From positions 42,776 to 106,775 of the forward strand of contig JBJXGT010000010.1 of NCBI GenBank assembly GCA_046160105.1: DNA of 64,000 nucleotides, read 5' to 3'. A program made the translations under genes and the position numbers. Of the stretch, positions 1,685 through 60,706 are shown piece by piece. A model generated the notes under the pieces. The model was not told the origin of the DNA. It made no database searches and saw nothing but the letters and a program-made list of their open reading frames with translations. The stretch is from Gemmatimonadales bacterium. Lineage in GTDB: Bacteria; Gemmatimonadota; Gemmatimonadetes; Gemmatimonadales; GWC2-71-9. The stretch's first letter is position 1, and every line of letters starts with the position of its first letter.

Positions 1685-2473
1685 CTAACGACCGTGGAAG
1701 ATCGGGCCCCGTTTCTCCAGCGCGGCGCGGCCCGCCTCCTTGAAGTCCTCCGAGGCCAGGCAGCGGCGAACTCCCGCGGCCGACTCTCGAAGGCCGGCGT
1801 CGGTCGAGGCGAGGGACGCGGCGATCGCCCGCTTGGCGGCGGCGATGCCCAGAGGAGCCTTCGCCGCCAGCGTCGCCGCGAGCGACTCGGCGGCGGCCTC
1901 GAGCTGGGAGAGGGGGACCACCCGGTTGGCGATCCCGAGCCGGTGGGCTTCGTGGGCGTCGAACCGGTCGCCGGTGAAGATCAGCTCCTTGGCCCTAGCA
2001 CTCCCGATCAGCTCCGGCAGCCAGACGCACCCGCCCAGGTCGGGGAGAATCCCGAAGTTGATCTCCGGGAATGCCATCACCGCGTCGTCGGCCAGGATCC
2101 GGAGATCGCAGGCCAGGGCGAGTTGGGCCCCGGCGCCTAACGCGAACCCGTGGACCGCCGCGATGGTCGGGAACGGTGCGTCGCGCAGCCAGGTGAATGC
2201 TTGCTGGATCGGCTCGACGTCGCTCGGCAGGGCGGCGCCGGAGCCGGTGGCGGCGCCGAGCAGGACGCCCAGATCGATGCCCGCCGAGAAACCGGGGCCG
2301 TTGCCGGACAGCAGGACGACCCGGACTGACCGGTCGTCGATCAGCTCGACGCCGGTCTCCCGGAGCTCTCGCCACATCTCCGGCGTCTGGGCGTTCCGCT
2401 TTTCCGGCCGATTGAGCCGCAGGCGCACCACCCCGTTGGCGGTGCGCTCCACGGTAAGGGTCGTGAGGCTCAT
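1685..2473 (-). CDS. enoyl-CoA hydratase/isomerase (crotonase) family protein
   Basis: MSLTTLTVERTANGVVRLRLNRPEKRNA...LSGNGPGFSAGIDLG...AAVHGFALGAGAQLALACDLR. The ATG at 2473 overlaps the stop of the upstream gene (ATGA). The rest of ORF 1685..3100 is an Arg/Pro-rich extension over the neighbouring gene. Confidence 0.9.
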   Translation of the reverse strand: MSLTTLTVERTANGVVRLRLNRPEKRNAQTPEMWRELRETGVELIDDRSVRVVLLSGNGPGFSAGIDLGVLLGAATGSGAALPSDVEPIQQAFTWLRDAPFPTIAAVHGFALGAGAQLALACDLRILADDAVMAFPEINFGILPDLGGCVWLPELIGSARAKELIFTGDRFDAHEAHRLGIANRVVPLSQLEAAAESLAATLAAKAPLGIAAAKRAIAASLASTDAGLRESAAGVRRCLASEDFKEAGRAALEKRGPIFHGR

Positions 2474-3900
2474 CGCACTCCGACGAGCCCGCGGACCGCG
2501 GCGATCATCTTGGCCGAGTCGTAGCCCAAGCCGTCGCGAAAGACCAGCTCGACGTTCTTGATGTCGGCGATCCGGGCGGCCGGGTTGCCATTGACCAGCA
2601 CCAGATCGGCGTTCTTGCCCACCGCGATCGACCCGGTCTCGCTGAAGATGCCGAGGATCTTGGCCCCGTTCGAGCTGGCGATCTGGATCGCTTCGACCGG
2701 GGTAAAACCCGCCTCGACCAGGAGCTCGACGTTGCGCTGGTCGCCGTAGCCGAACAGGGCGCCACCGTTGCCGGTCGGATCGACGCCAGAGCCGAGCAGC
2801 CCTCCCGCCTTGGCGAAGGCGAGCTCGTACTTCATCCCGGTCTTGAAAATCTCGAGCGGGATCCCGCTGTTGGTCGCGGCGATCTGCGCGCGGGAGGTGA
2901 GGTACTCGTTCTTCGCGTCGGTCGACATCGCATCGAGGACCCGCTGCTCGAGCGGCGGCCGGTTGGCGACGAAGAGCTCGTAGACCACCAGGGTGGAGGT
3001 GAGCCCGACGCCTTTGTCGATCATCGTCTTGAAGGTGTTCTTCACCTCGGCGGAGCTGACGTCGAGGTTCGAGTAGCTGCCCATCATGTTGGGCGAGCAC
3101 TGATCGGGCTTCCTGGTCTTGTCGTAATCGGAGTTGGCGAAGAGACCGTGCTCAAGTTGATCGATGCCGAGGGCAACGGCTTCGGTGTAGGGCACCGAGC
3201 AGAGGTGGCCGGTGAACTTGAGGCCGTGCTTGTGGCCCTCGTCGATCGCGGCCTTCATCGCGGCCCGGCTCACCCCGGTGTAGAACTTGAGCCACGACAC
3301 GCCCTCGGCCGCCCAGTACGCGACCACTCGGCGGGCCTCGTCCTCGTTCTTGAGCCCCACCATGGAGCTTCCGGTGCCGTTGTCCGGCCCGGTCAGGTAC
3401 GGCCCGGTGATGAACAGCCGCGGCCCCGGGAAGTCGCCCTGGTCGACCGACTTCTTGAGGTTGAGCTCGGCGTAGGGATTATTGGCGCCGGTGGTCCGGA
3501 CCGTGGTCACGCCGCTGGCGAGGTAGAGGAGCGGCGCCGTGAAGCTCGACTGCACGGTGCGGCCCGAGGTGGTGTAGTAGCTGTGGTCGTGGAGGCCGAC
3601 CAGTCCGGGGATGAGCGTCTTCCCCGCGCCATCGATCGTCCGAGCGCCGGAGGGCACGGTGACCGACCCGGTGGCCCCGATCGCCGCGATCTTGCCGCCG
3701 GTGACCACCACGGTCTGGCCCTCGACCGGGGCGGTGCCCATCCCGTCGATGACCCGCACGTTGGTGATCGCGACCGGACCGTCAACCGAGAGGAAATGGC
3801 GCACCTGGGGGCCGAGATTGGCCGGCCGCTGGGCCGACAGGGCGGCGACTGGCACCGCGAGGCCGAGGGCGACGGCGAGGGTCTTGGAGCGGGTCAGCAT
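2470..3900 (-). CDS. secreted amidohydrolase family protein (metal-dependent hydrolase)
   Basis: N-terminal signal peptide MLTRSKTLAVALGLAVPVAALSAQ. GLVGLHDHSY and the C-terminal GSIAVGKNADLVLVNGNP are typical of the amidohydrolase superfamily. Confidence 0.8.
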   Translation of the reverse strand: MLTRSKTLAVALGLAVPVAALSAQRPANLGPQVRHFLSVDGPVAITNVRVIDGMGTAPVEGQTVVVTGGKIAAIGATGSVTVPSGARTIDGAGKTLIPGLVGLHDHSYYTTSGRTVQSSFTAPLLYLASGVTTVRTTGANNPYAELNLKKSVDQGDFPGPRLFITGPYLTGPDNGTGSSMVGLKNEDEARRVVAYWAAEGVSWLKFYTGVSRAAMKAAIDEGHKHGLKFTGHLCSVPYTEAVALGIDQLEHGLFANSDYDKTRKPDQCSPNMMGSYSNLDVSSAEVKNTFKTMIDKGVGLTSTLVVYELFVANRPPLEQRVLDAMSTDAKNEYLTSRAQIAATNSGIPLEIFKTGMKYELAFAKAGGLLGSGVDPTGNGGALFGYGDQRNVELLVEAGFTPVEAIQIASSNGAKILGIFSETGSIAVGKNADLVLVNGNPAARIADIKNVELVFRDGLGYDSAKMIAAVRGLVGVR

Positions 3901-3998
3901 CGGACGGGTCCCTTGGAACGAGGGGTGAGAACGTCGGGGCGATGGGTCGATTATACTGTGACGGGGCGTTGGGGGGCAGGGCGCATCAAGGAACCAGG

Positions 3999-4427
3999 AT
4001 GACAGGCAACATCGGGCAAGCGAGTGAGGTGAGCGGCCGGGTGGCGCGGCGTGTCGCGGCGACCAGGACGGCGCGGGCGGCGTGGGCTTTTGCGGGCCAT
4101 GTGCTCGTGCTGCTCGGGGTCATCGGGGCGTTCGTCCCGTTGATGCCGACGACGGTGTTCTTGATCATGGCGGCGTCGTGTTACGCTCGGTCGTCGGAGC
4201 GGCTCTATCGCTGGCTCCTCGAGCACCCCTGGTTCGGCCCGGTCCTCCGAGACTGGATCGAGCACCGGTCGATGCGCGCCCGCCCCAAGGTGATCGCGAT
4301 CGGGACCATCGTGGTGGCGTTCGCGCTCTCGTTCTTCGCGATTCCGCTGACCTGGGTACGGGTCGTCCACGTGGGGATCGGCCTGGCGCTCGTCGGGTAC
4401 CTGCTCCGAATTCCGATTCGGCGTTAG
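3999..4427 (+). CDS. ybaN: DUF454 inner-membrane protein YbaN
   Basis: FVPLMPTTVFLIMAASCYARSSERLYRWLLEHPWFGPVLRDWIEH matches the YbaN/DUF454 pattern. The ATG at 3999 is preceded by AAGGAA. An alternative ATG lies at 3942. Confidence 0.75.
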   Translation: MTGNIGQASEVSGRVARRVAATRTARAAWAFAGHVLVLLGVIGAFVPLMPTTVFLIMAASCYARSSERLYRWLLEHPWFGPVLRDWIEHRSMRARPKVIAIGTIVVAFALSFFAIPLTWVRVVHVGIGLALVGYLLRIPIRR

Positions 4428-4434
4428 GCGATTT

Positions 4435-5895
4435 TCAGAGGATGTACTTCCGGAGGTCGTCGTCGCTGACGACCTTCGCCAGCCGGTCGCGAACCTTCTC
4501 CGCCGTCATCACGATCCGCTTGTCGAACTCCGGCAGCTCGAAGAGCGCCTCGTCCATCAGCGTCGCCATCACGGTGTGGAGCCGGCGGGCCCCGATGTTC
4601 TCCATCCGGTCGTTGGCGGTCGCCGCGATCCGGGCGATCTCGGCGACCCCGTCGTCGGTGAACTCGAGCACCGCGTTCTCCGCCGCGACCAGCGCCTGGT
4701 ACTGCTTGGTGATGGCGTTCTCGGGCTCCTTCATGATCCGGACGAAATCGGCTTCGGTCAGCGGCGACAACTCGACTCGAATCGGAAACCGGCCTTGGAG
4801 CTCGGGGATCAGGTCGGACGGCTTGGAGACATGGAACGCGCCGGCCGCGATGAAGAGCACGTGGTCGGTCCGAACGTAGCCGTAGCGGGTCTGCACCGTG
4901 GAGCCCTCGACGATCGGGAGCAGATCGCGCTGGACGCCCTCGCGGGAGATGTCCGGCCCGGTTTGCGACTTCTCGCCGGCGATCTTGTCGATCTCGTCGA
5001 TGAAGATGATCCCGTGGTTCTCAACCCGGTCGAGCGCCTCGTTGACCACGTCGTCCATGTCGACGATCCGGCGGAGCTCGTCGTCGACCAGGATCCGCCG
5101 GGCCTCGGGGATCTTGACGGTCCGGCGCTTCTTTCGTTTCGGCATCATCTCCTGGAGCCACTCGCCCCAGTTGAAATCGGTGCCCTCCATGCCTTGCGGC
5201 GGCTGGGGCATGAAATCCATCGAGGGAAAATTCTGCGCCTGGACCTCGATCTCGACCTCGCGATCGTCGAGCTTCCCTTCCGCCAAGAGGACCCGCAGCT
5301 TCTCGCGCGATCGCTGGCGGCGCTCGGCCTCGGGCTCCTCCTCGGCCTTGGCAACCGTGCCACTCGGCGACACGACGAAGATGCCCGACGAGGATGGGTC
5401 GGGCTTCGGGGCGGGGGCCGGCGCCGGAGCCGCGGGCAGCAGGAGATCGAGGAGCTTCTCCTCCGCCTTCTTCTCGGCGTCCGGATAGACCTCGTCTTCG
5501 CGTTCGGTCCGGACCAGGCTGATGGCGGCGTCGACCAGATCGCGCACCATCGTCTCGACATCGCGGCCGACGTAGCCCACCTCGGTGAACTTCGAGGCCT
5601 CGACTTTGATGAAGGGTGCGCCGGCGAGCCGAGCCAAACGGCGAGCGATCTCGGTCTTCCCGACCCCGGTGGGGCCGATCAGGATGATGTTGGACGGAGT
5701 GATCTCGTCCCGAATCTGATCGGGCGTCTGACTGCGCCGCCAGCGGTTACGGACCGCGATGGCGATGGCTCGCTTGGCGGCCTCCTGTCCCACGATGTAA
5801 CGGTCGAGCTCGGCGACGATCTGGCGAGGGGGCATCTCCTCGAGCCAGGGAAGCGGCGGCTGTTCGGGCGACGCGGGCGTGACGGGTTCGGACAT
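4435..5895 (-). CDS. hslU: ATP-dependent protease ATPase subunit HslU
   Basis: IVAELDRYIVGQEAAKRAIAIAVRNRWRR, Walker A GPTGVGKTEIARRLA, IIFIDEIDKI and LFIAAGAFH. No clear SD precedes the ATG at 5895. An internal ATG at 5835 (MPPRQIV) is an alternative start. Confidence 0.93.
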   Translation of the reverse strand: MSEPVTPASPEQPPLPWLEEMPPRQIVAELDRYIVGQEAAKRAIAIAVRNRWRRSQTPDQIRDEITPSNIILIGPTGVGKTEIARRLARLAGAPFIKVEASKFTEVGYVGRDVETMVRDLVDAAISLVRTEREDEVYPDAEKKAEEKLLDLLLPAAPAPAPAPKPDPSSSGIFVVSPSGTVAKAEEEPEAERRQRSREKLRVLLAEGKLDDREVEIEVQAQNFPSMDFMPQPPQGMEGTDFNWGEWLQEMMPKRKKRRTVKIPEARRILVDDELRRIVDMDDVVNEALDRVENHGIIFIDEIDKIAGEKSQTGPDISREGVQRDLLPIVEGSTVQTRYGYVRTDHVLFIAAGAFHVSKPSDLIPELQGRFPIRVELSPLTEADFVRIMKEPENAITKQYQALVAAENAVLEFTDDGVAEIARIAATANDRMENIGARRLHTVMATLMDEALFELPEFDKRIVMTAEKVRDRLAKVVSDDDLRKYIL

Positions 5896-5957
5896 GGGGG
5901 GAAGCTGCCGGGGGGGGAGGGGGGGCGCAAGGAGGGACGGCGCGGGGCGCAGGGCGC

Positions 5958-6013
5958 AGGACTCAAGACTCAGGACTCAGGACTCAGGACTCAGGGCTCA
6001 GGGCTCGGGACCC
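5958..6013. repeat. tandem heptamer array A, (AGGACTC)n, 8 units
   Basis: Read directly: aggactc aagactc aggactc aggactc aggactc agggctc agggctc gggaccc. Inverted relative to arrays B and C. Confidence 0.95.
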
Positions 6014-6075
6014 AGGAGGGGGGCGGCGACTGGCTGGGCGGGGAGGCCGGCTGGGAGGGCTAAGGCGGGTTGGCT

Positions 6076-6152
6076 CAGTCTCGAGTCCTGGGTCGTGAGT
6101 CTTGTGTCTTGAGTCTTGAGTCCTGAGTCCTGAGTCTCGAGTCCTGAGTCCT
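6076..6152. repeat. tandem heptamer array B, (GAGTCCT)n, about 11 units; reverse complement of array A
   Basis: cagtctc gagtcct gggtcgt gagtctt gtgtctt gagtctt gagtcct gagtcct gagtctc gagtcct gagtcct. With array A it can form a long imperfect hairpin with a ~62 nt loop. Confidence 0.95.
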
Positions 6153-6257
6153 GCCCGCCCCGCGCCTCCGCCCAGCAGCGACCCCCTTCGCGAAAAAACG
6201 GGTATCGGGTGCGTCGATCCGATGAAGGGGTTTCTAGAGAAGCGTGCAAGTTGCGGG

Positions 6258-6677
6258 ATGGGCAACTTTCGCAAGTTCGAGGCATGGAAGGCCTGCTTCG
6301 ATCTGACACTCGCCGTGTTCGAGGCAACGAAGGCCTGGCCGAAGGCTGAGCTGTTCGGGATCACCTCCCAGGTCCGCCGGGCCGCCGTCTCGGCCGGGGC
6401 GAACATGGCCGAAGGGTCGGGAAAGCACAGTCACGCCGACTTCGCCCGCTACCTCGACATCGCCAACGGCTCCCTCGCGGAACTCGAGCACCTCCTGCTA
6501 CTCCTCCGTGAACTCAGGCTCCTCCCCAACGATGCCTGGCAGCGCCTCGACGCCGGCCGGGCCAACGCCGCCAAGCTCACCCTCGGTCTCTTCCGCTATT
6601 TCACCAGCCAGCCCACGCCAAACCGCCCCGGTCGTCCCCCGCGGCGCCAACTCTCAGACCCAGGTCCAGGCTCTTGA
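6258..6677 (+). CDS. four-helix-bundle protein (23S rRNA intervening-sequence protein family, TIGR02436-like)
   Basis: MGNFRKFEAWKACFDLTLAVFEATKAWPKAELFGITSQVRRAAVSAGANMAEGSGKHSHADFARYLDIANGSLAELEHLL fits the family pattern. The stop TGA (6675-6677) is supplied by the first unit of array C. An upstream ATG at 6222 is possible. Confidence 0.85.
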   Translation: MGNFRKFEAWKACFDLTLAVFEATKAWPKAELFGITSQVRRAAVSAGANMAEGSGKHSHADFARYLDIANGSLAELEHLLLLLRELRLLPNDAWQRLDAGRANAAKLTLGLFRYFTSQPTPNRPGRPPRRQLSDPGPGS

Positions 6678-6745
6678 GTCCTGAGTCCTGAGTCCTGAGT
6701 CCTGAGCCCTGAGTCCTGAGTCCTGAGTCCTGAGCCCCGAGTCCC
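6676..6745. repeat. tandem heptamer array C, (GAGTCCT)n, 10 units (degenerate units from about 6662)
   Basis: gagtcct x4, gagccct, gagtcct x3, gagcccc, gagtccc. It fills exactly the space between the four-helix-bundle stop and the hslV stop. Confidence 0.95.
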
Positions 6746-7279
6746 TCAACTCAACTCCAATATCGTCAGATTCCGATTGGTAAAGACACAAATATCCGCC
6801 GCGATCTCGAGCGACCGCTGGACGATGTCGCGGGCCGTCTTGCTCGGGTCCGGCATCAAGGCCCGGCCCGCGGCCAGCGCGAAGTTGCCGCCCGACCCGA
6901 CCGACAGCACCCCGTCGTCCGGCTCGAACAGCTCGCCCAACCCGCTGATCAGATAGCTGTGGTCCAGATCGGCCACGACCAGCATCGCCTCGAGTCGGCG
7001 GAGGACCCGGTCGCTCCGCCAGTCCTTGGCCAGCTCGACGGCGGCCCGTGGGAGGTTGCCCGGATAGCGGTCGAGCTTCTCCTCGAAACGCTCGAACAAG
7101 GTGATCGCGTCGGCGACCGAGCCGGCGAACCCCGCCAGGACCCGGCCGTTCTTGAGCGACCGGATCTTGTTCGCGGTGGCTTTCATGACCGTGTCACCCA
7201 TGGTGACCTGGCCGTCGCCGCCCATGGCGACTTTGCCGTCTTTGCGAACGCAGATGATGGTGGTGCCGTGGAAACCCAT
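6746..7279 (-). CDS. hslV: ATP-dependent protease subunit HslV
   Basis: [28 protein letters not shown]...[14 protein letters not shown]. The SD GGGGAGG precedes the ATG. Confidence 0.95.
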
Positions 7280-7296
7280 GAGCCTCCCCTGAAGCG

Positions 7297-8214
7297 TCAG
7301 CCCCCGCGAGGGTGGGCCTGACGATAGACGTCCTTGAGCCGTTGCACGCTGGTATGGGTGTACACCTGCGTGGTGCTGAGCGACGCGTGGCCTAACAACT
7401 CCTGCACCGCCCGGAGGTCGGCGCCGGCATCCATCAGGTGAGTCGCGAAGCTGTGCCGGAGCGAGTGCACCCTCCGTCCGGCGATCCCCGCTCCCCGATA
7501 AAGCCCGTGGATGCGTCGCTGAACACTCCGGGCCGCGAGCCGGCGCCCCTTCGGCGAGAGAAACAGGGCCCGCTTTTCGCCCCGGGTGGCCCGAGCCACC
7601 TCCTCCCGTAGTGCAAGGTAGCCACGAAGCGCCTTCTCGGCCCGGCGGCCCACCGGGACGATCCGCTCCTTCCGGCCCTTGCCGCGGACCCGGATCTGGT
7701 TGCTCAAGAGGTCGAGGTCCGGCACGTCGGCGCCGGCGAGCTCTGAAAGCCGCAGGCCACTCGAGTAGAACAGCTCGAGCATGGCGTGGTCCCGGACCGG
7801 AATGAACTCGCCGGATTTGGCTCGCTCCTCGGCGGCCTCGAACAGCACCGCCGTCTCGTCCTGACGGAGGTAGCTCGGGAGTCGCTTCTCGATCTTCGGC
7901 ACCCGGGCGGCCCGGGCCACCCCGTTGCTAACTCCGTGATGCACCTGCAAATAGCGGAACATCGACCGGATCGCCGAGAGGGCGCGGGCGGCCGACCGAC
8001 GCGAGAGACGGCGCCGCTCGTAGTCGCCGAGGAAGCCGCGAAGCCCCAGCCGATCGACCGTTTCCCAGGTCCATTGGCCGCCATAGTAGTCGTTGGCGAA
8101 CCGGACGAAGGCCTCGAGATCGCGACGGTACGCGTTGACCGTATGGACCGACTGATCCCGCTCCTTGGCGAGGTGGAGGAGGAACTCCGCGGCGAGGGTC
8201 GCGGGGTCGGTCAC
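7297..8214 (-). CDS. xerC: tyrosine recombinase XerC
   Basis: [16 protein letters not shown], the catalytic region [39 protein letters not shown], and a GTG start at 8214 in a GTGA overlap with the trmFO stop. Sits in the conserved trmFO-xerC-hslVU synteny. Confidence 0.9.
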
Positions 8215-9500
8215 AGCGTGGCCCGCCAGGCGGCGAAGTCCCGCTCGGCCCGCGCCACCAGCGCGGCGCGGCGGTCGGACTTCCTGGTCCCTTCGGGCAA
8301 CGGGTCGAGGAGGCCGAAGTTGGCGTTCATCGGTTGAAAATGGTCGGGGTCGGCCTCGGCGAGGTAGCGGTAGAGTCCGCCTAACATGGTGCTGGGCGGC
8401 GGCACCGTGACCGGCTGGCCCGTCAGCAGCCGATGGAGGTTGATGCCGGCCAGCAGTCCGGTGCCGAGCGACTCGGTATAGCCCTCGACGCCGGTGAGCT
8501 GGCCGGCGAAGAACACGTCGCCCCGGCTCAGCCCCGGGCCGAGGCATCGCGGGCTGTTGAGGTACGAATTCCGATGAATGCTGCCGTACCGCAGAAACTC
8601 GGCTGACCCTAACCCAGGGATGGACCGAAACACCCGCTGCTGCTCGGGGATCCGGAGCCGAGTCTGGAAACCGACCAGGTTCCACATCTGGCCGGCTCGA
8701 TCCTCCCGGCGGAGCTGAACCACCGCGTGGGGCTCGCGGCCGGTCCGCGGATCGCGAAGGCCCACCGGTTTCATCGGACCGAACCGGAGCGTCTCGGGGC
8801 CGCGGCGAGCCATCTCCTCGATCGGCAGGCAGCCCTCGAAGTAGGGGACCTGGTCGAAACCGTGGGCGGTAAACTGATCGCCGGCGGCCACCGCGGCGAT
8901 GAACGCCTGGTACTCGTCGCGCGACATCGGCGCGTTGAGGTAATCGTCGCCGTCGCCTTTGCCGTAACGGGAGAGCGCATAGAGCTGGTCCCGGTCAAGG
9001 CTCTCGGCCGACACGATCGGGGCGATGGCGTCGAAGAACGCCAGCGACTCGACGCCCAGCTCGGCGGCGATGACCTGGGCCAGGGCGTCGGAGGTGAGCG
9101 GCCCGGTGGCCACGATCCCGGGCCGCGGCAGCTCGGTGGCCTCCTGGTCGACCACGGTGATCCGGGGGTGGCCGCGCACTCGAGCGTCGACGGCCGCCGA
9201 GAAGATCTCCCGGTCGACCACCAGGGCGGCGCCGCCGGGCACCCGGGCCGCCCGAGCCGCCTCCAGCAGAATGCTGCCTAACGACTCCAGCTCGGCCTTG
9301 AGCAGTCCGTGGGCGTTGACCAGCTCGACCGACTTGAACGAGTTGCTGCACACCAACTCAGCCAGCCGTCCCGTCTGGTGGGCGGGAGTGCCTTTCCCCG
9401 GTCGCATCTCCACCAGGGTGACTTCGACGCCGCGCTCGGCGAGCGCCCAGGCCGCCTCGGAGCCCGCCAGCCCACCGCCAACCACCGTCGCCCGGGTCAC
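8211..9500 (-). CDS. trmFO: methylenetetrahydrofolate--tRNA-(uracil-5-)-methyltransferase TrmFO
   Basis: VVGGGLAGSEAAWALAERG (FAD fold), LVCSNSFK, FFAGQLTGVEGYTES. GTG start at 9500 in a GTGA overlap with the aroK stop. Confidence 0.9.
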   Translation of the reverse strand: MTRATVVGGGLAGSEAAWALAERGVEVTLVEMRPGKGTPAHQTGRLAELVCSNSFKSVELVNAHGLLKAELESLGSILLEAARAARVPGGAALVVDREIFSAAVDARVRGHPRITVVDQEATELPRPGIVATGPLTSDALAQVIAAELGVESLAFFDAIAPIVSAESLDRDQLYALSRYGKGDGDDYLNAPMSRDEYQAFIAAVAAGDQFTAHGFDQVPYFEGCLPIEEMARRGPETLRFGPMKPVGLRDPRTGREPHAVVQLRREDRAGQMWNLVGFQTRLRIPEQQRVFRSIPGLGSAEFLRYGSIHRNSYLNSPRCLGPGLSRGDVFFAGQLTGVEGYTESLGTGLLAGINLHRLLTGQPVTVPPPSTMLGGLYRYLAEADPDHFQPMNANFGLLDPLPEGTRKSDRRAALVARAERDFAAWRATL

Positions 9501-56322: not shown

Positions 56323-57411
56323 GTGGGCATGGTTCGGTTGCTCTCCAAGTACGTGCTCTGGCAGTGGCTCCGGATCTTCGTGCTGGCGGCGGTCGGGTTG
56401 CCGCTGGTCTCGGTGCTGATCAATACCACCGACCGACTGAATCGGCTGCTCGACCGGGATCTCTCGGGCGCTACCATCGCGTTGGCGGGGCTCTACGGCC
56501 TCCCCGGACACATGGCGCAGATGATCCCGGCGGCGGCCCTTTTCGCCACCGTCTTCACCATCGGACCCCTGGCTCGAAACTCCGAGATCACGGCGGCCAA
56601 GGCGGGAGGGGTGAGTTTCCACCGGTTGACGCTGCCGGTGCTGTTCGCCAGCACCCTGGCCGCGGTCTTTTGCTTCTGGATCGGTGAGGTGGCCACCCGG
56701 ACCACGGCTCGCCAGCTCGAGCTCGAGAAGGAGCGGATCGCCCGGAACCAGACCACCCGCCACGAGTTCGTCTACATCGCCGACGACGGCTGGACCTACT
56801 CGGTGCGGTACCTCAACACCGAGACCCGGATGATGCACGGGGTGGTGCTGGAGCATGCCGGGCGTCGGGCCGGCTACGCCAATCTCGCCATCTCGGCCGA
56901 CAGCGCCCGGTGGAACGACACCACCAGTCGGTGGCGGCTGATGGGCGGCTCGTCGCACATCCTGGCCGACACCACGGTGCCGAAAACGATGCGGTTCGCC
57001 TCGCTCGAGCTCAAGTCGTTCGACGAGCCGCCCCGATCCCTGTTGATCGAGCCGAAGCGCCCGGAGGAGATGGCCTACGCCGAGCTCGGTGAATACATCC
57101 AAACGCTCCGCCGCTCGGGGAACGACACCAGGAAGCTCGAGGTCGACCAGGCCATCAAGCTCGCCCTCCCGGCGGCGTGCTTGGTGATCGCCTTGTTCGG
57201 CGCCCCGTTGGCGATGACCAACCCGAGAGCGGGCACCGCGTGGGGCATCGCGATCAGCCTGGGGACGACCGTGTTCTACCTGTTGCTGATCAACCTGATG
57301 AAGGCGGTGGGGGCGACGGGGGTGATCAATCCGGCGGGTGCCGCGGCGTGGGTGCCGAATGGGATCTTCTTGGTGATGGGCTTGTGGCTGATGGTGCGGG
57401 TGAGGACGTAG
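56323..57411 (+). CDS. lptG: LptF/LptG-family LPS export permease (LptG-like)
   Basis: LLSKYVLWQWLRIFVLAAVGLPLVSVLI. GTG at 56323 with GAAGGAAG 7 nt upstream. An ATG at 56329 is an alternative start. Confidence 0.8.
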   Translation: MGMVRLLSKYVLWQWLRIFVLAAVGLPLVSVLINTTDRLNRLLDRDLSGATIALAGLYGLPGHMAQMIPAAALFATVFTIGPLARNSEITAAKAGGVSFHRLTLPVLFASTLAAVFCFWIGEVATRTTARQLELEKERIARNQTTRHEFVYIADDGWTYSVRYLNTETRMMHGVVLEHAGRRAGYANLAISADSARWNDTTSRWRLMGGSSHILADTTVPKTMRFASLELKSFDEPPRSLLIEPKRPEEMAYAELGEYIQTLRRSGNDTRKLEVDQAIKLALPAACLVIALFGAPLAMTNPRAGTAWGIAISLGTTVFYLLLINLMKAVGATGVINPAGAAAWVPNGIFLVMGLWLMVRVRT

Positions 57412-57416
57412 GGGTC

Positions 57417-57479
57417 AGGACTCAGGACTCAGGACTCAAGACTCAGGACGCAAGACTCAGGACGCAAGACTCAGGATCA
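57417..57479. repeat. tandem heptamer array D, (AGGACTC)n, 9 units
   Basis: aggactc x3, aagactc, aggacgc, aagactc, aggacgc, aagactc, aggatca. Starts 6 nt after the lptG stop. Confidence 0.95.
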
Positions 57480-57488
57480 GCAAAGAGA

Positions 57489-57521
57489 ACGGCCGGGTTC
57501 CGAAATCCGAAACCCGGCCGT
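57489..57521. terminator. central hairpin between convergent genes (bidirectional terminator candidate)
   Basis: ACGGCCGGGTT-ccgaaatccga-AACCCGGCCGT, an 11 bp perfect stem flanked by arrays D and E. Confidence 0.6.
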
Positions 57522-57530
57522 CACTTTCTT

Positions 57531-57558
57531 GAGTCCTGAGTCCTGAGTCTTGAGTCCT
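57531..57558. repeat. tandem heptamer array E, (GAGTCCT)n, 4 units; inverted relative to array D
   Basis: gagtcct gagtcct gagtctt gagtcct. The last unit overlaps the TAG stop of the TonB-dependent receptor gene. Confidence 0.95.
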
Positions 57559-60500
57559 AAAAAACGTACTTCGCGCCCAACTGCACCCGCCAGCGGGACC
57601 CGAAGGTCTGGACCGGTCGGATCCGGGGCAGAATGATGTTGCTACCTGACTTGGGCAGGTCGTAGAGCCCGCGGTCATCGGCGGTGGTCCCGGTCGTGCC
57701 CCGGTTGTCGGTGCCAGCGACCCGCAGGAAATTGAGCTCCTCGAAGGCGCTGGTCTCCCGCTGCAAGCCCCAATCCGCGTCGAGCATGTTGAGGAAGTTG
57801 AAGATGTCCGCGCCCACCTGCATCCGATTGCCACCCGGGACGTTGATGAACTTGGAGAGCCGAACGTCGACGAAGCTGATCCATGGATTCCGGCAGCTGT
57901 TGCGCCGCATGACCTGGCCGCGCTGGGACCGGAGGCAGTCCTGCCCGGCGATGAACTGATCGAGGACGGCGTAATCGGCCGCGGCGACCAGGCTGATGTC
58001 GGTGGGATCCTTGGGCACGTACAGCAGGTCGTTGCCGACGATGCCATCACCATTGGCGTCGCCGTTGTAGGTGTAGGCGAACGGCAAGCCCGACTGACCG
58101 CGGTAAATCATCGAGCCCGCGAGACCGAACGGAAGGTTGACCGTCCCGGAGAGAATGATCTTGTGGCGAGTCTCGAACCCGGAAGTCGCCAGATTGCGGT
58201 TGGCCAGGGTGCCGTCGAGTGAGGTGAAGTTCAGGTTCGAGGTCGCGATGCTCGACGTCAGCGAGAAGAGGTCCTCGCTCTTCTGCCAGGTATACGCGGC
58301 GTTGAATTCGACCCCATCAGAGAAACGCTTCTGGAGCTGCCCGGTGACCAGCCACGACCGGTCCTTGGATCGGTTCTCGTGGGTCACCACGGTCGCGAAG
58401 GCCGCCCTGGCCGGGGCGGGATCGGCGATGTACAACATCCGCCCTTCGGCGTTCGCGTTCGTCTCGATTCTCTTGATGTTGTTGACGTACATCGTGTGGC
58501 GATTTCGGGTATGGATCACGTCCAGGGTACCGACGATTCCGCTCCCGAACTGATGATCGATCCCGAAGGCATACCGGAGGGACTGCTGCGCCTTGAAGTC
58601 CGGATCGAAGACGTTGATCGTCTGCGCCGGCGGCGTTCCGGGCGGCGTGTTGAGACAGGTCCGGGGCAGGTTGCCGACATCGAGCGTGAAGGTCGGCACC
58701 AAGTTGCCGGTGCAGACTAAGGTGAACTGCTCTTGCCCGGTGTTGGTGAAGGCATTCGACAACCAGACGTACGGCGGCCGACCCGCGAAGATCCCTACCC
58801 CGCCCCGGAGGATCGTTTCTCCCGATCCCCAAACGTCCCAGTTGAACCCGAACCGGGGGGCGATCGCCAGGTTGCCCGAGGGGAAGTCATCGGTTCGCAA
58901 CCCCGGGAACGCCGCAGTGAAAGCCGCGTTTGCCACCGGCGCGTCATGGAGCGGAACATCGACCCGCACCCCGAAGGTCAGCGCGACGCGATCGGACAGG
59001 TTCCATCGATCCTGGAGGTACCCGCCGAGCTGCTTGACCCCCCAATCGGCGATCGGACCTTCCGGTCGCGCCGCGGTCCCGAACGAGAGCTCGTACCGAT
59101 TCGGGGTCCCGGCGTCGAGCGCATCCGCGCTCGCGAACGTCCAGACGCCCAGCGAACCCGGGAAGAAGACGTTCCGGAAGCTGAAGAACTCGTTGTGGGT
59201 GCCGACGGTGAACTGATGGTTGCCGACGCCGAAGGTGAAGTTGTCGGTGATCTCGAGGATGTTCTGATCGAGGGAGTTGGCATGGGAGAACTTCTCCGCC
59301 CCCGCCGCGATATAGTTGCCGGCCACGTCGCCCTGGATCAGCAGCAAGGGGACCCGATTCGGGACCGCCCGCTGATCGCGAACCGTCTGGTAGCTGACCA
59401 GGAACTCGTTCGACGAGGAACCGAGGGTGCTGGTCAGCTTGAGGCGGGTGCTGTTGGTCTTCGATTCGAACCGATACCCGCTGTTCGACAACTGCCAGCC
59501 GTCGCGGTCGGTCCGGGTCCGGCTGGTCCGCCCGAAGTTGTCGTCGCCGGCATTGACGTAGTTGTGCGACAGCTCGGCGAAGTGGTTGTTGGACAACTGG
59601 TACGTCAGCTTACCGAAGAAGTTGTTGTCGGGCCGCTCGATGACGGGCGACTCGGACCCGCCCGGGTCGAAGCCGTACTTGCTGCGAATGATGCCGGCCA
59701 CCCGCTCGGCCGTCGACGTCGTGATCCCGGTGGCCGGAATGGTGCTCTCGTTCCCGGTGAACGGCTGGTTCCGATCCTGGATGTCGCCGGTCACGAAGAA
59801 GTGCATCCGATTCTTGATGATCGGGCCACCCAACGAAAACCCAAACGCCTTCACCTGGAAGTTGGCCAGTCGGGTGCCGGCGGTGTCGAGACCGACCAGG
59901 TCCTGTCGCTGGAACGATCCGAAGACCGACCCGGACAGCTTGTTGGTCCCCGACTTGGTCACCGCGTTGACCAACCCACCGGAGAAGTTGCCTTGGCGGA
60001 CGTCGAACGGCGCCGTCAGCACCTGGAACTCCTGAAGGGCCTCGAGGGAGATCGGCTTGGCGCCCGCCTGCCCGCCCGGAGTACCGCTCGCCGCAAGCCC
60101 GAAGACGTCGTTGTTGATGCCGCCGTCGATCTGGATGTTGTTGAATCGGTTGTTCTGACCCGCGATGGTGATCCCACCCCCCGAAGTGGTCGCGACCTGG
60201 GGATTGATGTTGAGCAGCGAGGTGAAGTTGCGCCCCAGCAGCGGGAGCCGCCCCATCGTGGTATCGGAGAGGATCTGCGCGGCACCGGTCCGACCGGTGT
60301 TGATCAAGGGGTTGGTGCTGGCGATCACCGAGATCTCTTCGAGCGTCACGACCTGCGCCTTGAGCTCGAAATCGGAGGTGTAGCGCTGGCCCAACGTCAG
60401 GGTCACCCCCGACTTCGTTGCCCGCTCGAAGCCGATCGCCCGGACCTCGATGGTGTAAGGACCCCCGGGCGGCACGTTCTCGAGGTTGTACCGGCCGTTG

Positions 60501-60706
60501 GTCCGGGTGCTGGTGGTCTGGCGAACTCCAGTCGCCGAGTTGGTGAGCCAGACGATGGCCGCCTCCACCGGAGTGCCGCCTTCGCGGGTAACGATCCCCT
60601 GGACCGCCGCGCTGGTGACGCCCTGGGCCGGGGCCCCGTTGGGCGCCAACACGCTAAATGCCATGGCCGCAACGAGATAGGATGAGTATCTAGAGTGGTG
60701 CCGCAT
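57557..60706 (-). CDS. TonB-dependent outer-membrane receptor with an N-terminal carboxypeptidase-regulatory-like domain
   Basis: Signal peptide. GIVTREGGTPVEAAIVWLTNSATGVRQTTSTRTNGRYNLENVPPGGPYTIEVRAIGF. Plug domain. C-terminal ...RWRVQLGAKYVF. Confidence 0.9.
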   Translation of the reverse strand: MRHHSRYSSYLVAAMAFSVLAPNGAPAQGVTSAAVQGIVTREGGTPVEAAIVWLTNSATGVRQTTSTRTNGRYNLENVPPGGPYTIEVRAIGFERATKSGVTLTLGQRYTSDFELKAQVVTLEEISVIASTNPLINTGRTGAAQILSDTTMGRLPLLGRNFTSLLNINPQVATTSGGGITIAGQNNRFNNIQIDGGINNDVFGLAASGTPGGQAGAKPISLEALQEFQVLTAPFDVRQGNFSGGLVNAVTKSGTNKLSGSVFGSFQRQDLVGLDTAGTRLANFQVKAFGFSLGGPIIKNRMHFFVTGDIQDRNQPFTGNESTIPATGITTSTAERVAGIIRSKYGFDPGGSESPVIERPDNNFFGKLTYQLSNNHFAELSHNYVNAGDDNFGRTSRTRTDRDGWQLSNSGYRFESKTNSTRLKLTSTLGSSSNEFLVSYQTVRDQRAVPNRVPLLLIQGDVAGNYIAAGAEKFSHANSLDQNILEITDNFTFGVGNHQFTVGTHNEFFSFRNVFFPGSLGVWTFASADALDAGTPNRYELSFGTAARPEGPIADWGVKQLGGYLQDRWNLSDRVALTFGVRVDVPLHDAPVANAAFTAAFPGLRTDDFPSGNLAIAPRFGFNWDVWGSGETILRGGVGIFAGRPPYVWLSNAFTNTGQEQFTLVCTGNLVPTFTLDVGNLPRTCLNTPPGTPPAQTINVFDPDFKAQQSLRYAFGIDHQFGSGIVGTLDVIHTRNRHTMYVNNIKRIETNANAEGRMLYIADPAPARAAFATVVTHENRSKDRSWLVTGQLQKRFSDGVEFNAAYTWQKSEDLFSLTSSIATSNLNFTSLDGTLANRNLATSGFETRHKIILSGTVNLPFGLAGSMIYRGQSGLPFAYTYNGDANGDGIVGNDLLYVPKDPTDISLVAAADYAVLDQFIAGQDCLRSQRGQVMRRNSCRNPWISFVDVRLSKFINVPGGNRMQVGADIFNFLNMLDADWGLQRETSAFEELNFLRVAGTDNRGTTGTTADDRGLYDLPKSGSNIILPRIRPVQTFGSRWRVQLGAKYVF

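Follow-up and report, generated by a model that had tools for sequence, protein, structure and literature searches.

An intervening-sequence-type cassette with a four-helix-bundle gene framed by inverted heptamer arrays at the hslV-hslU junction of a Gemmatimonadales genome

Results

We analyzed a 64-kb stretch of DNA from a metagenome-assembled genome (MAG) of a Gemmatimonadales bacterium (contig JBJXGT010000010.1, positions 42,776 to 106,775, hereafter the window), in which the genes hslV and hslU are separated by a spacer of 850 nt (5896-6745) that carries a gene of its own. A first-pass annotation, made from the letters alone, had noticed a gap of about 850 bp within the trmFO-xerC-hslV-hslU gene string, and this holds, with trmFO and xerC lying upstream of hslV on the same minus strand. 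In plus-strand order, the spacer contains an array A of a heptamer, a G-rich loop, the inverted array B, a gene encoding a four-helix-bundle protein on the strand opposite to that of hslVU, and a third array, C (Table 1). This ensemble is referred to below as the cassette.

Table 1. Coordinates of the cassette, its host genes and the related gene-less hairpin in the window
Feature	Position	Strand	Details
hslU (AAA+ ATPase), downstream host gene	4435-5895	-	486-aa open reading frame (ORF), AAA_2/AAA domains
Promoter-like element for hslU, from sequence	5902-5930	-	TTGCGC (5925-5930), 17 nt, CAGCTT (5902-5907), 6 nt, ATG
Array A, (AGGACTC)n, purine-rich canonical 5' arm	5957-6017	+	Tandem Repeats Finder (TRF): CAGGACT, period 7, 8.7 copies; whole arm taken as 5950-6017
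G-rich A-B loop	6018-6082	+	about 65 nt
Array B, (GAGTCCT)n, lineage-specific extra arm folding back on A	6083-6153	+	TRF: 10.1 copies
Internal promoter region (putative)	6154-6257	+	-10-like CAAGTT 6247-6252, 5 nt before ATG; no Shine-Dalgarno
Four-helix-bundle gene (PF05635 / TIGR02436)	6258-6677	+	139 aa
Array C, (TGAGTCC)n, canonical 3' arm complementary to A	6675-6744	+	TRF: 10.0 copies
hslV (proteasome-like peptidase), upstream host gene	6746-7279	-	
Gene-less hairpin of the same heptamer	57415-57558	.	(TCAGGAC)x9.6, 50-nt loop, (TGAGTCC)x4

The product of the opposite-strand gene had been assigned to the protein family encoded within intervening sequences (IVS) of rRNA, and this attribution is borne out by matches to PF05635 (E 3.6e-28, 98.3 bits for a cut-off of 33.8) and to TIGR02436, the "four helix bundle protein" (92.1 bits for a cut-off of 24). 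Sequence matches to the solved structures of the pentameric XCC0516 (2GSC, E 1.2e-15) and of 2RLD point to a four-helix-bundle pentamer fold for the 139-aa protein, for which NCBI holds a protein with 100% identity from a Gemmatimonadales MAG. The family is characterized by a GxxRxxxSxxxNxxE motif (PMC3936711), and the R-x3-S-x3-N-x2-E part of it is present here, the residues R41, S45, N49 and E52 being invariant or nearly so in an alignment of 34 sequences. Two metagenome contigs (L001 and L002) carry an orthologue; since an upstream ATG at 6222 is out of frame in L002, the start of the ORF was placed at 6258. The ratio of nonsynonymous to synonymous substitution rates (dN/dS) among the three orthologues (window, L001 and L002) lies between 0.12 and 0.17, and the ORF is under purifying selection.

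The arrays were detected with TRF, and the window contains 32 matches to (GAGTCCT)2 at no more than two mismatches, for 0.61 expected. The ten units counted for array C in the first-pass annotation stand, whereas the eight units of A, the eleven units of B and the 62-nt loop are slightly revised to the values of Table 1. The same annotation had proposed that A pairs either with B, in a hairpin, or with C, in a stem enclosing the whole gene as in rRNA IVS. Folded alone, the A-B hairpin reaches -165.3 kcal/mol (z -11.7) on the plus strand and -123.7 kcal/mol (z -8.7) on the minus strand. The A-C pairing involves 53 Watson-Crick pairs over 59 aligned positions, with 6 mismatches, and in the minimum-energy fold of the entire 831-nt element an A-C outer stem encloses the gene on both strands (-433.2 and -434.7 kcal/mol). 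Both structures thus form in silico, A-C being the thermodynamic optimum and A-B a local alternative; A-C is the canonical pair, with the layout of rRNA IVS, and B is a lineage-specific extra. Plant and animal microRNA models of Rfam gave sub-threshold scores on the A-B hairpin (5958-6145; MIR6450, 41.5 bits for a gathering threshold of 70), which reflect its long regular stem, and a microRNA precursor was rejected. No Rfam family, rRNA included, reached the gathering threshold anywhere in the 64-kb window.

Array C had also been described as filling exactly the gap to the hslV stop and as supplying the stop codon of the inserted gene. The TGA of the four-helix-bundle ORF (6675-6677) does form the opening three bases of the array, which ends one base before the hslV stop (6746-6748). 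However, as 7 and 3 share no factor, translation that runs into (TGAGTCC)n reaches a TGA after at most three units, whatever its frame, so that a stop codon in array C is automatic.

Comparison with related genomes, which the first-pass annotation had suggested, separates junctions with and without the cassette. It occupies the same position in L001 and L002, the encoded protein being 90% identical to that of the window in one contig and 76% in the other, and its orientation is identical in all three. The layout of L002 is that of the window (A, loop, B, gene, C, hslV), while L001 has A, gene and C without B, and a Ser/Thr kinase gene (797 aa) between C and hslV; A and C, or A, B and C, therefore recur in independent metagenome assemblies. 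The string aroC-aroK-trmFO-xerC-hslV-hslU is kept, and the cassette absent, in L208 and L211, two genomes of which one has an 85% and the other a 91% identical HslV. In L211 the junction is closed, the hslV stop and the hslU start overlapping (TGATG), and in L208 the two genes are 38 nt apart. Judging from these junctions, the cassette is an insertion into a site that is closed in near relatives.

The L208 spacer (4027-4071) is itself a (TAGACGGA)x5.6 array, L210 (4031-4171) has a gene-less hairpin, (CGGATAGGA)x8.6 / (GTCCTATCC)x4, after hslV, and L209 (4050-5160) has a SnoaL/DUF4440 gene at the junction with (ATCCTATCC)x7 before hslU. From these sequences, the hslV-hslU junction is a recurrent hot spot for insertions and arrays. 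The copy number of the arrays varies between relatives, and the arrays are therefore expandable. No direct repeat was evident at the edges of the cassette, and no transposase lies within it. The junction arrays of these other Gemmatimonadales have a period of 8 or 9 (TAGACGGA, CGGATAGGA) and stand alone, as a hairpin or around the SnoaL/DUF4440 gene.

The generality of the framed layout was assessed on 80 metagenome loci containing relatives of 40-52% identity (78 distinct genes), retrieved with a search built on 11 sequences, the 34-sequence alignment being too diverse. The 300 nt upstream of each gene were compared with the reverse complement of the 300 nt downstream by stringent local alignment, a score of at least 14 defining complementary arms, and 182 equally spaced shifted flank pairs from the same loci served as controls. 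Arms were found at 64 of the 78 genes, which group into nine or more conserved genomic locations besides singletons and do not represent 78 independent events, versus none of the 182 controls (control maximum 13). The median arm score was 21 for the genes and 9 for the controls (Mann-Whitney p = 4e-29), and arms were present in 33 of the 41 clusters formed at 70% protein identity. In this branch of the PF05635 family, framing by arms is the rule, and the enclosing A-C stem proposed in the first-pass annotation is the norm. An alternative arm test based on the RNAduplex energy between flanks was discarded, as it did not separate genes from controls in this GC-rich DNA.

In 51 of the 64 framed loci the arms are tandem arrays, most often of period 8 (n=22) or 10 (n=13), followed by periods 7 (n=7) and 9 (n=7), and the repeat unit is specific to the locus (GGACTCA, GGTACAG, GAATGATG, GGGCGGCAA, GACGGTAAGG, GCGGCGGTCAA plus spacer, and others). 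The first arm, rich in purines (G 46%, C 19%), ends at a median of 79 nt before the start codon, while the complementary arm begins at a median of 10 nt after the stop. The first arm of L001, 87 nt upstream of the start, fits this geometry; array A is 241 nt upstream in the window and 221 nt upstream in L002 because B and its loop intervene. In L202, a relative with 56% identity, the arms are (AGGGTAC)x4.7 and (CCCTGTA)x4.9. Arms made of heptamers were likewise seen around a gene of Anaerolineales and around another on an IMG/VR contig. A Poribacteria family gene adjoining an IS110 transposase has no arms. In L205-L207, a family gene with period-8 arms lies antisense between genes for T2SSG-domain (pseudopilin-like) and T2SSE (secretion ATPase) proteins, in a type II secretion / type IV pilus operon. 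A T2SSE protein of 514 aa is called in L206, and the same stretch (4466-6010) is without a gene call in L205 and L207, where this neighbour of the cassette may be disrupted. Our search of the literature on the heptamer, on PF05635/TIGR02436 together with repeats, and on inversion found no description of array-framed free-standing members.

At four loci (L144, L150, L128 and L129) the arms repeat every 20 nt or so, a conserved core GCGGCGGTCAA alternating with spacers of 9-10 nt that vary. Such arms could be mistaken for clustered regularly interspaced short palindromic repeats (CRISPR), and might contribute to the CRISPR association reported for 23S_rRNA_IVP genes (PMC3936711, PMC10910872). 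Genes of the family are reported from cas operons as well, one such position being that between cmr3 and cmr2 (PMC3936711).

Several pairs of cassettes with 80-98% identical proteins appeared to have unrelated flanks and were candidates for transposition, but blastn showed the same locus in inverted form. In the comparison of L136 with L146, positions 4368-7926 of the former match 3586-1 of the latter in reverse and positions 2044-3918 match 5983-4109 in reverse, the centre matching forward, with the breakpoints located inside the arrays. In a systematic comparison, 92 pairs are direct and 30 inverted, and both orientations occur in four of the nine conserved locus groups, the group of the window having one only. 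The inversions are seen between species-level relatives, the flanks of which are 84-87% identical. These alignments indicate that the arms do recombine as DNA, in the manner of inverted repeats. The mismatches between arms show no preference for G-U on either strand (99 vs 83), transversions (181) being as common as transitions. Arm-arm recombination can explain how complementarity is kept while the unit drifts, and no positive sign of RNA-level selection was seen. L186 alone has flanks that are unrelated in both orientations and is the sole candidate for a second site, so that the evidence for transposition is weak. The mobile or expandable cassette of the first-pass annotation is hence retained as regards insertion and change of copy number; instead of transposition, inversion is what the relatives display. 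No dedicated recombinase or invertase was found next to framed cassettes in the annotated contexts; the adjoining xerC belongs to the conserved trmFO-xerC-hslVU string and is found also in genomes without the cassette. A home-made GC-frame gene caller, intended for the orientation of cassettes relative to their neighbours, mis-called known genes and was dropped.

The family loci share signals upstream of the gene. A -10-like [TC]ANNNT is found at 54 of 71 loci, its end lying 4-9 nt upstream of the start codon (mode 6), compared with 5 and 3 of 71 at control offsets, properly spaced TTGA-type -35 boxes occur at many of them, and a Shine-Dalgarno-like 4-mer was seen at a single locus of the 71. 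From this geometry, the cassette appears to have its own internal promoter downstream of A and B, and its mRNA is probably leaderless. Such an mRNA would start downstream of the 5' arm, and would consequently be unable to form the A-C stem. In 10 of 57 cassettes an intrinsic-terminator-like hairpin, derived from the last unit of the 5' arm, stands just before the promoter; array B occupies this position in the window. After the 3' arm a terminator-like site was found in 1 of 57 cassettes (ORF control, 0 of 57).

On the other side of array A, a promoter-like element precedes hslU, and its geometry is kept in L001 (TTGCGC-17-CACCTT-6-ATG). It is possible, from this conservation, that the element is a leaderless promoter making hslU independent of hslV transcription. 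A sigma-70 consensus scan gave no match within the hslV-hslU spacer.

The first-pass annotation had described the gene as framed by the arrays; that they are a frame peculiar to this gene is not supported. The same heptamer forms a gene-less hairpin at 57415-57558 (-87.7 kcal/mol, z -9.0). It takes up the 145 nt that separate lptG (56323-57411) from a TonB-dependent-type outer-membrane gene convergent with it (57557-60706), and its loop contains a GC-rich hairpin which, on either strand, has a T-rich tail. In L001 an inverted AGGACTC/GAGTCCT pair lies between the amidohydrolase and DUF454 genes (1659-1832); the counterpart in the window (about 3900-3942) is only ~40 nt long and has no array, indicating that arrays are gained or lost between close relatives. 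A scan of a one-genome-per-species collection, restricted to exact (GAGTCCT)3 and to this unit alone, returned at least 119 loci in Acidobacteriota, Planctomycetota, Cyanobacteria, Chloroflexota, Longimicrobium and others. About 45 of the loci listed are inverted pairs, and a PF05635 gene lies within 8 kb of only 2 of them, one being L003.

The array is often present several times per MAG, as in Thermoanaerobaculia CAZLGP01, Acidobacteria JAJXWV01 and Kastovskya adunca, and the inverted pairs of other phyla mostly have GAGTCCT as first arm, the reverse of the order in the window. In an unclassified MAG (MAG87), a low-GC (46%) PF05635 gene stands between GAGTCCT and AGGACTC arrays (L003, 3270-3870) and a gene-less array of the same unit occurs elsewhere (L014). 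The L003 gene has an in-frame stop (NIV*GAAR, for NIAEG in relatives) and looks like a pseudogene, that is, a recently inactivated copy. Gene-less arrays beside other cassettes are often of a different unit (L146, L149, L162 and L182).

Discussion

Taken together, these data lead us to propose that a self-contained cassette of the IVS type has been inserted in hslVU, the arms of which would recombine as DNA and would zip read-through RNA into an RNase III-type duplex, an interpretation that we hold with equal measures of confidence and doubt. The cassette consists of array A, the extra array B of this lineage, a putative internal promoter for a leaderless mRNA, the four-helix-bundle ORF and array C. 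At the DNA level, the arms would recombine, remain complementary as the unit drifts and occasionally flip the cassette. At the RNA level, any transcript across the cassette would carry both arms, in this case a transcript running from hslV to hslU and antisense to the gene. Its arms could pair over ~60 bp around the cassette, giving the type of duplex that RNase III cuts during the excision of rRNA IVS, and the hslVU message would be separated into two pieces, one for each gene. As well as on read-through, hslU probably relies on the promoter-like element adjoining array A. The processing or attenuation between hslV and hslU put forward in the first-pass annotation would follow by analogy with rRNA IVS, RNase III processing of the read-through hslVU transcript being plausible.

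This analogy draws on the 23S rRNA IVS of Leptospira and Coxiella burnetii, which encode the same protein family, place the ORF within complementary termini that form a long stem, and have a sporadic, insertion-like distribution. In C. burnetii, a PF05635 ORF lies between terminal inverted repeats forming a 28-bp stem cut by RNase III, and the 5' region contains two or three tandem heptamers (GACAGAT), variable in number between strains, the 5' cut being made at the first repeat (PMC4990558). Variable tandem heptamers at the 5' RNase III site are thus a further likeness (PMC4990558). There are also differences. The cassette lies between two protein-coding genes and on the opposite strand, whereas IVS lie in helix 25 or 45 of the rRNA; its arms, 60-70 nt long, are tandem arrays throughout; it seems to bring a promoter of its own, and members of its family are found inverted; its ORF is under purifying selection while that of Coxiella is decaying; and RNase III cleavage, known for IVS, is a putative step for the cassette.

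Several observations weigh against the proposed role in RNA. The absence of a G-U bias in the arm mismatches leaves DNA-level homogenisation, which alone could keep the arms complementary. The gene's own mRNA would begin after the 5' arm and could not fold into the stem, A is contested by B and C, and no U-tract follows the duplex. In addition, hslU may need no read-through at all, the cassette has one orientation in all three hslVU genomes, and, since the repeat also forms hairpins devoid of a gene, the arms can exist without one.

A purely DNA-level device, in which the arrays exist for the inversion of a gene-plus-promoter cassette and a flip, as a terminator is usually lacking after the gene, changes the neighbour that receives the outgoing transcription (hslV, in antisense, for the orientation found here; hslU, in sense, for the opposite one), seems to us rather unlikely. 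It gains from the presence of both orientations in four of nine conserved loci, with breakpoints inside the arrays, from the unbiased mismatches just mentioned, and from the position of the terminator-like sites, which are ten times as frequent before the promoter as after the 3' arm. Like fimS, hin, the Bacteroides invertible promoters and the shufflons, the cassettes of this family are bounded by inverted repeats, occur in both orientations at some of the conserved loci and have a putative promoter. In contrast to these segments, no dedicated site-specific recombinase lies beside them, the annotated contexts containing no invertase, and their repeats are long locus-specific tandem arrays instead of short conserved sites. 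The inversions separate species-level relatives and were not found within a population, nor at hslVU, where a single orientation is shared by the window, L001 and L002. Moreover, a device of this kind would leave the layout shared with rRNA IVS unexplained.

Under another hypothesis, the arms are generic intergenic simple-sequence hairpins of these genomes, resembling REP elements, that act as terminators or insulators at gene ends, and the four-helix-bundle gene is a passenger with a tendency to settle or persist in their loops. The numerous (GAGTCCT)3 loci in many phyla, of which few have the gene nearby, speak for it, as do the gene-less pair at 57415-57558, which encloses a terminator-like hairpin between convergent genes, and the hslV junction arrays of relatives without the gene (L208 and L210) or with a different one (L209). 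Comparable arrays are known in the short tandemly repeated repetitive (STRR) sequences of cyanobacteria and in the TAACTGA repeats of Beggiatoaceae (PMC4679880), which are likewise intergenic tandem heptamers with many loci per genome in distant lineages. As in STRR, a name given to cyanobacterial repeats, intergenic tandem heptamers occupy two loci in the window and a third in L001. The STRR/TAACTGA arrays are overwhelmingly direct and upstream of genes, with one inverted case among 170 sets (PMC4679880), unlike those of the cassette type, which are inverted pairs forming hairpins or framing a gene. From the side of the gene, however, the association with arms is nearly total, the spacing to its start and stop codons is fixed in a way not expected for chance lodging, and arms and gene invert as one unit; we therefore consider a passenger gene quite improbable.

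Still less probable, in our view, is a repeat-and-caretaker system in which hairpins of the repeat that flanks the gene are spread, kept up or flipped by its protein, acting in trans; gene-less copies of this unit elsewhere in the genome would then be accounted for. The model would be the couple formed by repetitive extragenic palindromic (REP) sequences, with the related BIME and REPIN elements, and the REP-associated tyrosine transposase (RAYT), where intergenic hairpin repeats are found in operons and a single gene is flanked by an inverted repeat that is also dispersed. In agreement with it, the heptamer that flanks the gene forms gene-less hairpins in the window and in L001, the cassette and the gene-less array of MAG87 share their unit, the protein is conserved (dN/dS ~0.15) and a relative, bAvd, handles nucleic acids. 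Unlike RAYT, the protein encoded by the cassette is small and helical and not an HUH/Y1 transposase, and its repeat consists of short units in tandem. The often different units of gene-less arrays near other cassettes (see above) do not fit a caretaker of its own repeat, and to our knowledge no catalytic domain is known for the four-helix-bundle fold.

PF05635 includes bAvd, a nucleic-acid-handling accessory protein of diversity-generating retroelements, many family matches also bear a precomputed PF22296 (bAvd) domain, and both proteins would share the four-helix-bundle pentamer fold suggested by the 2GSC and 2RLD matches. That the gene is a remnant or accessory of such a retroelement is nevertheless extremely improbable, since neither a reverse transcriptase nor template or variable repeats occur near the cassette, the genes within ~5 kb being those for an amidohydrolase and a DUF454 protein, hslU, hslV, xerC and trmFO. 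Lastly, although the window comes from a MAG, a chance repeat or an assembly artefact is refuted by the excess of heptamer matches over expectation and by the same architecture in the independent L001 and L002 and family-wide.

The nature of rRNA IVS and the role of their four-helix-bundle protein have been in question since the early 1990s and are now testable on free-standing relatives, which share the layout of an ORF within a long stem, here built from tandem arrays of a short unit, and which have an apparent leaderless promoter, sit inside essential operons and are found flipped. A broader conjecture, which we regard as unlikely, would be that of an unrecognised protein-repeat partnership, in which the protein favours the spread, the maintenance or the inversion of hairpins made of its flanking unit, the cassette is a flippable, outward-firing promoter module and rRNA IVS are a special case; if true, cassette flips would rewire neighbouring operons such as hslVU. 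For genome annotation, the cassettes break operon predictions, as for hslVU here, and their arrays may be confused with CRISPR-like repeats.

Neighbouring genes

PADLOC gave no defence-system match. Orthologues of hslU are called in L001, L208 and L211. The mechanical ORF of xerC (7297-8685) is 462 aa long and overlaps trmFO, orthologues being called at 305 aa, and the true xerC start is probably near 8214.

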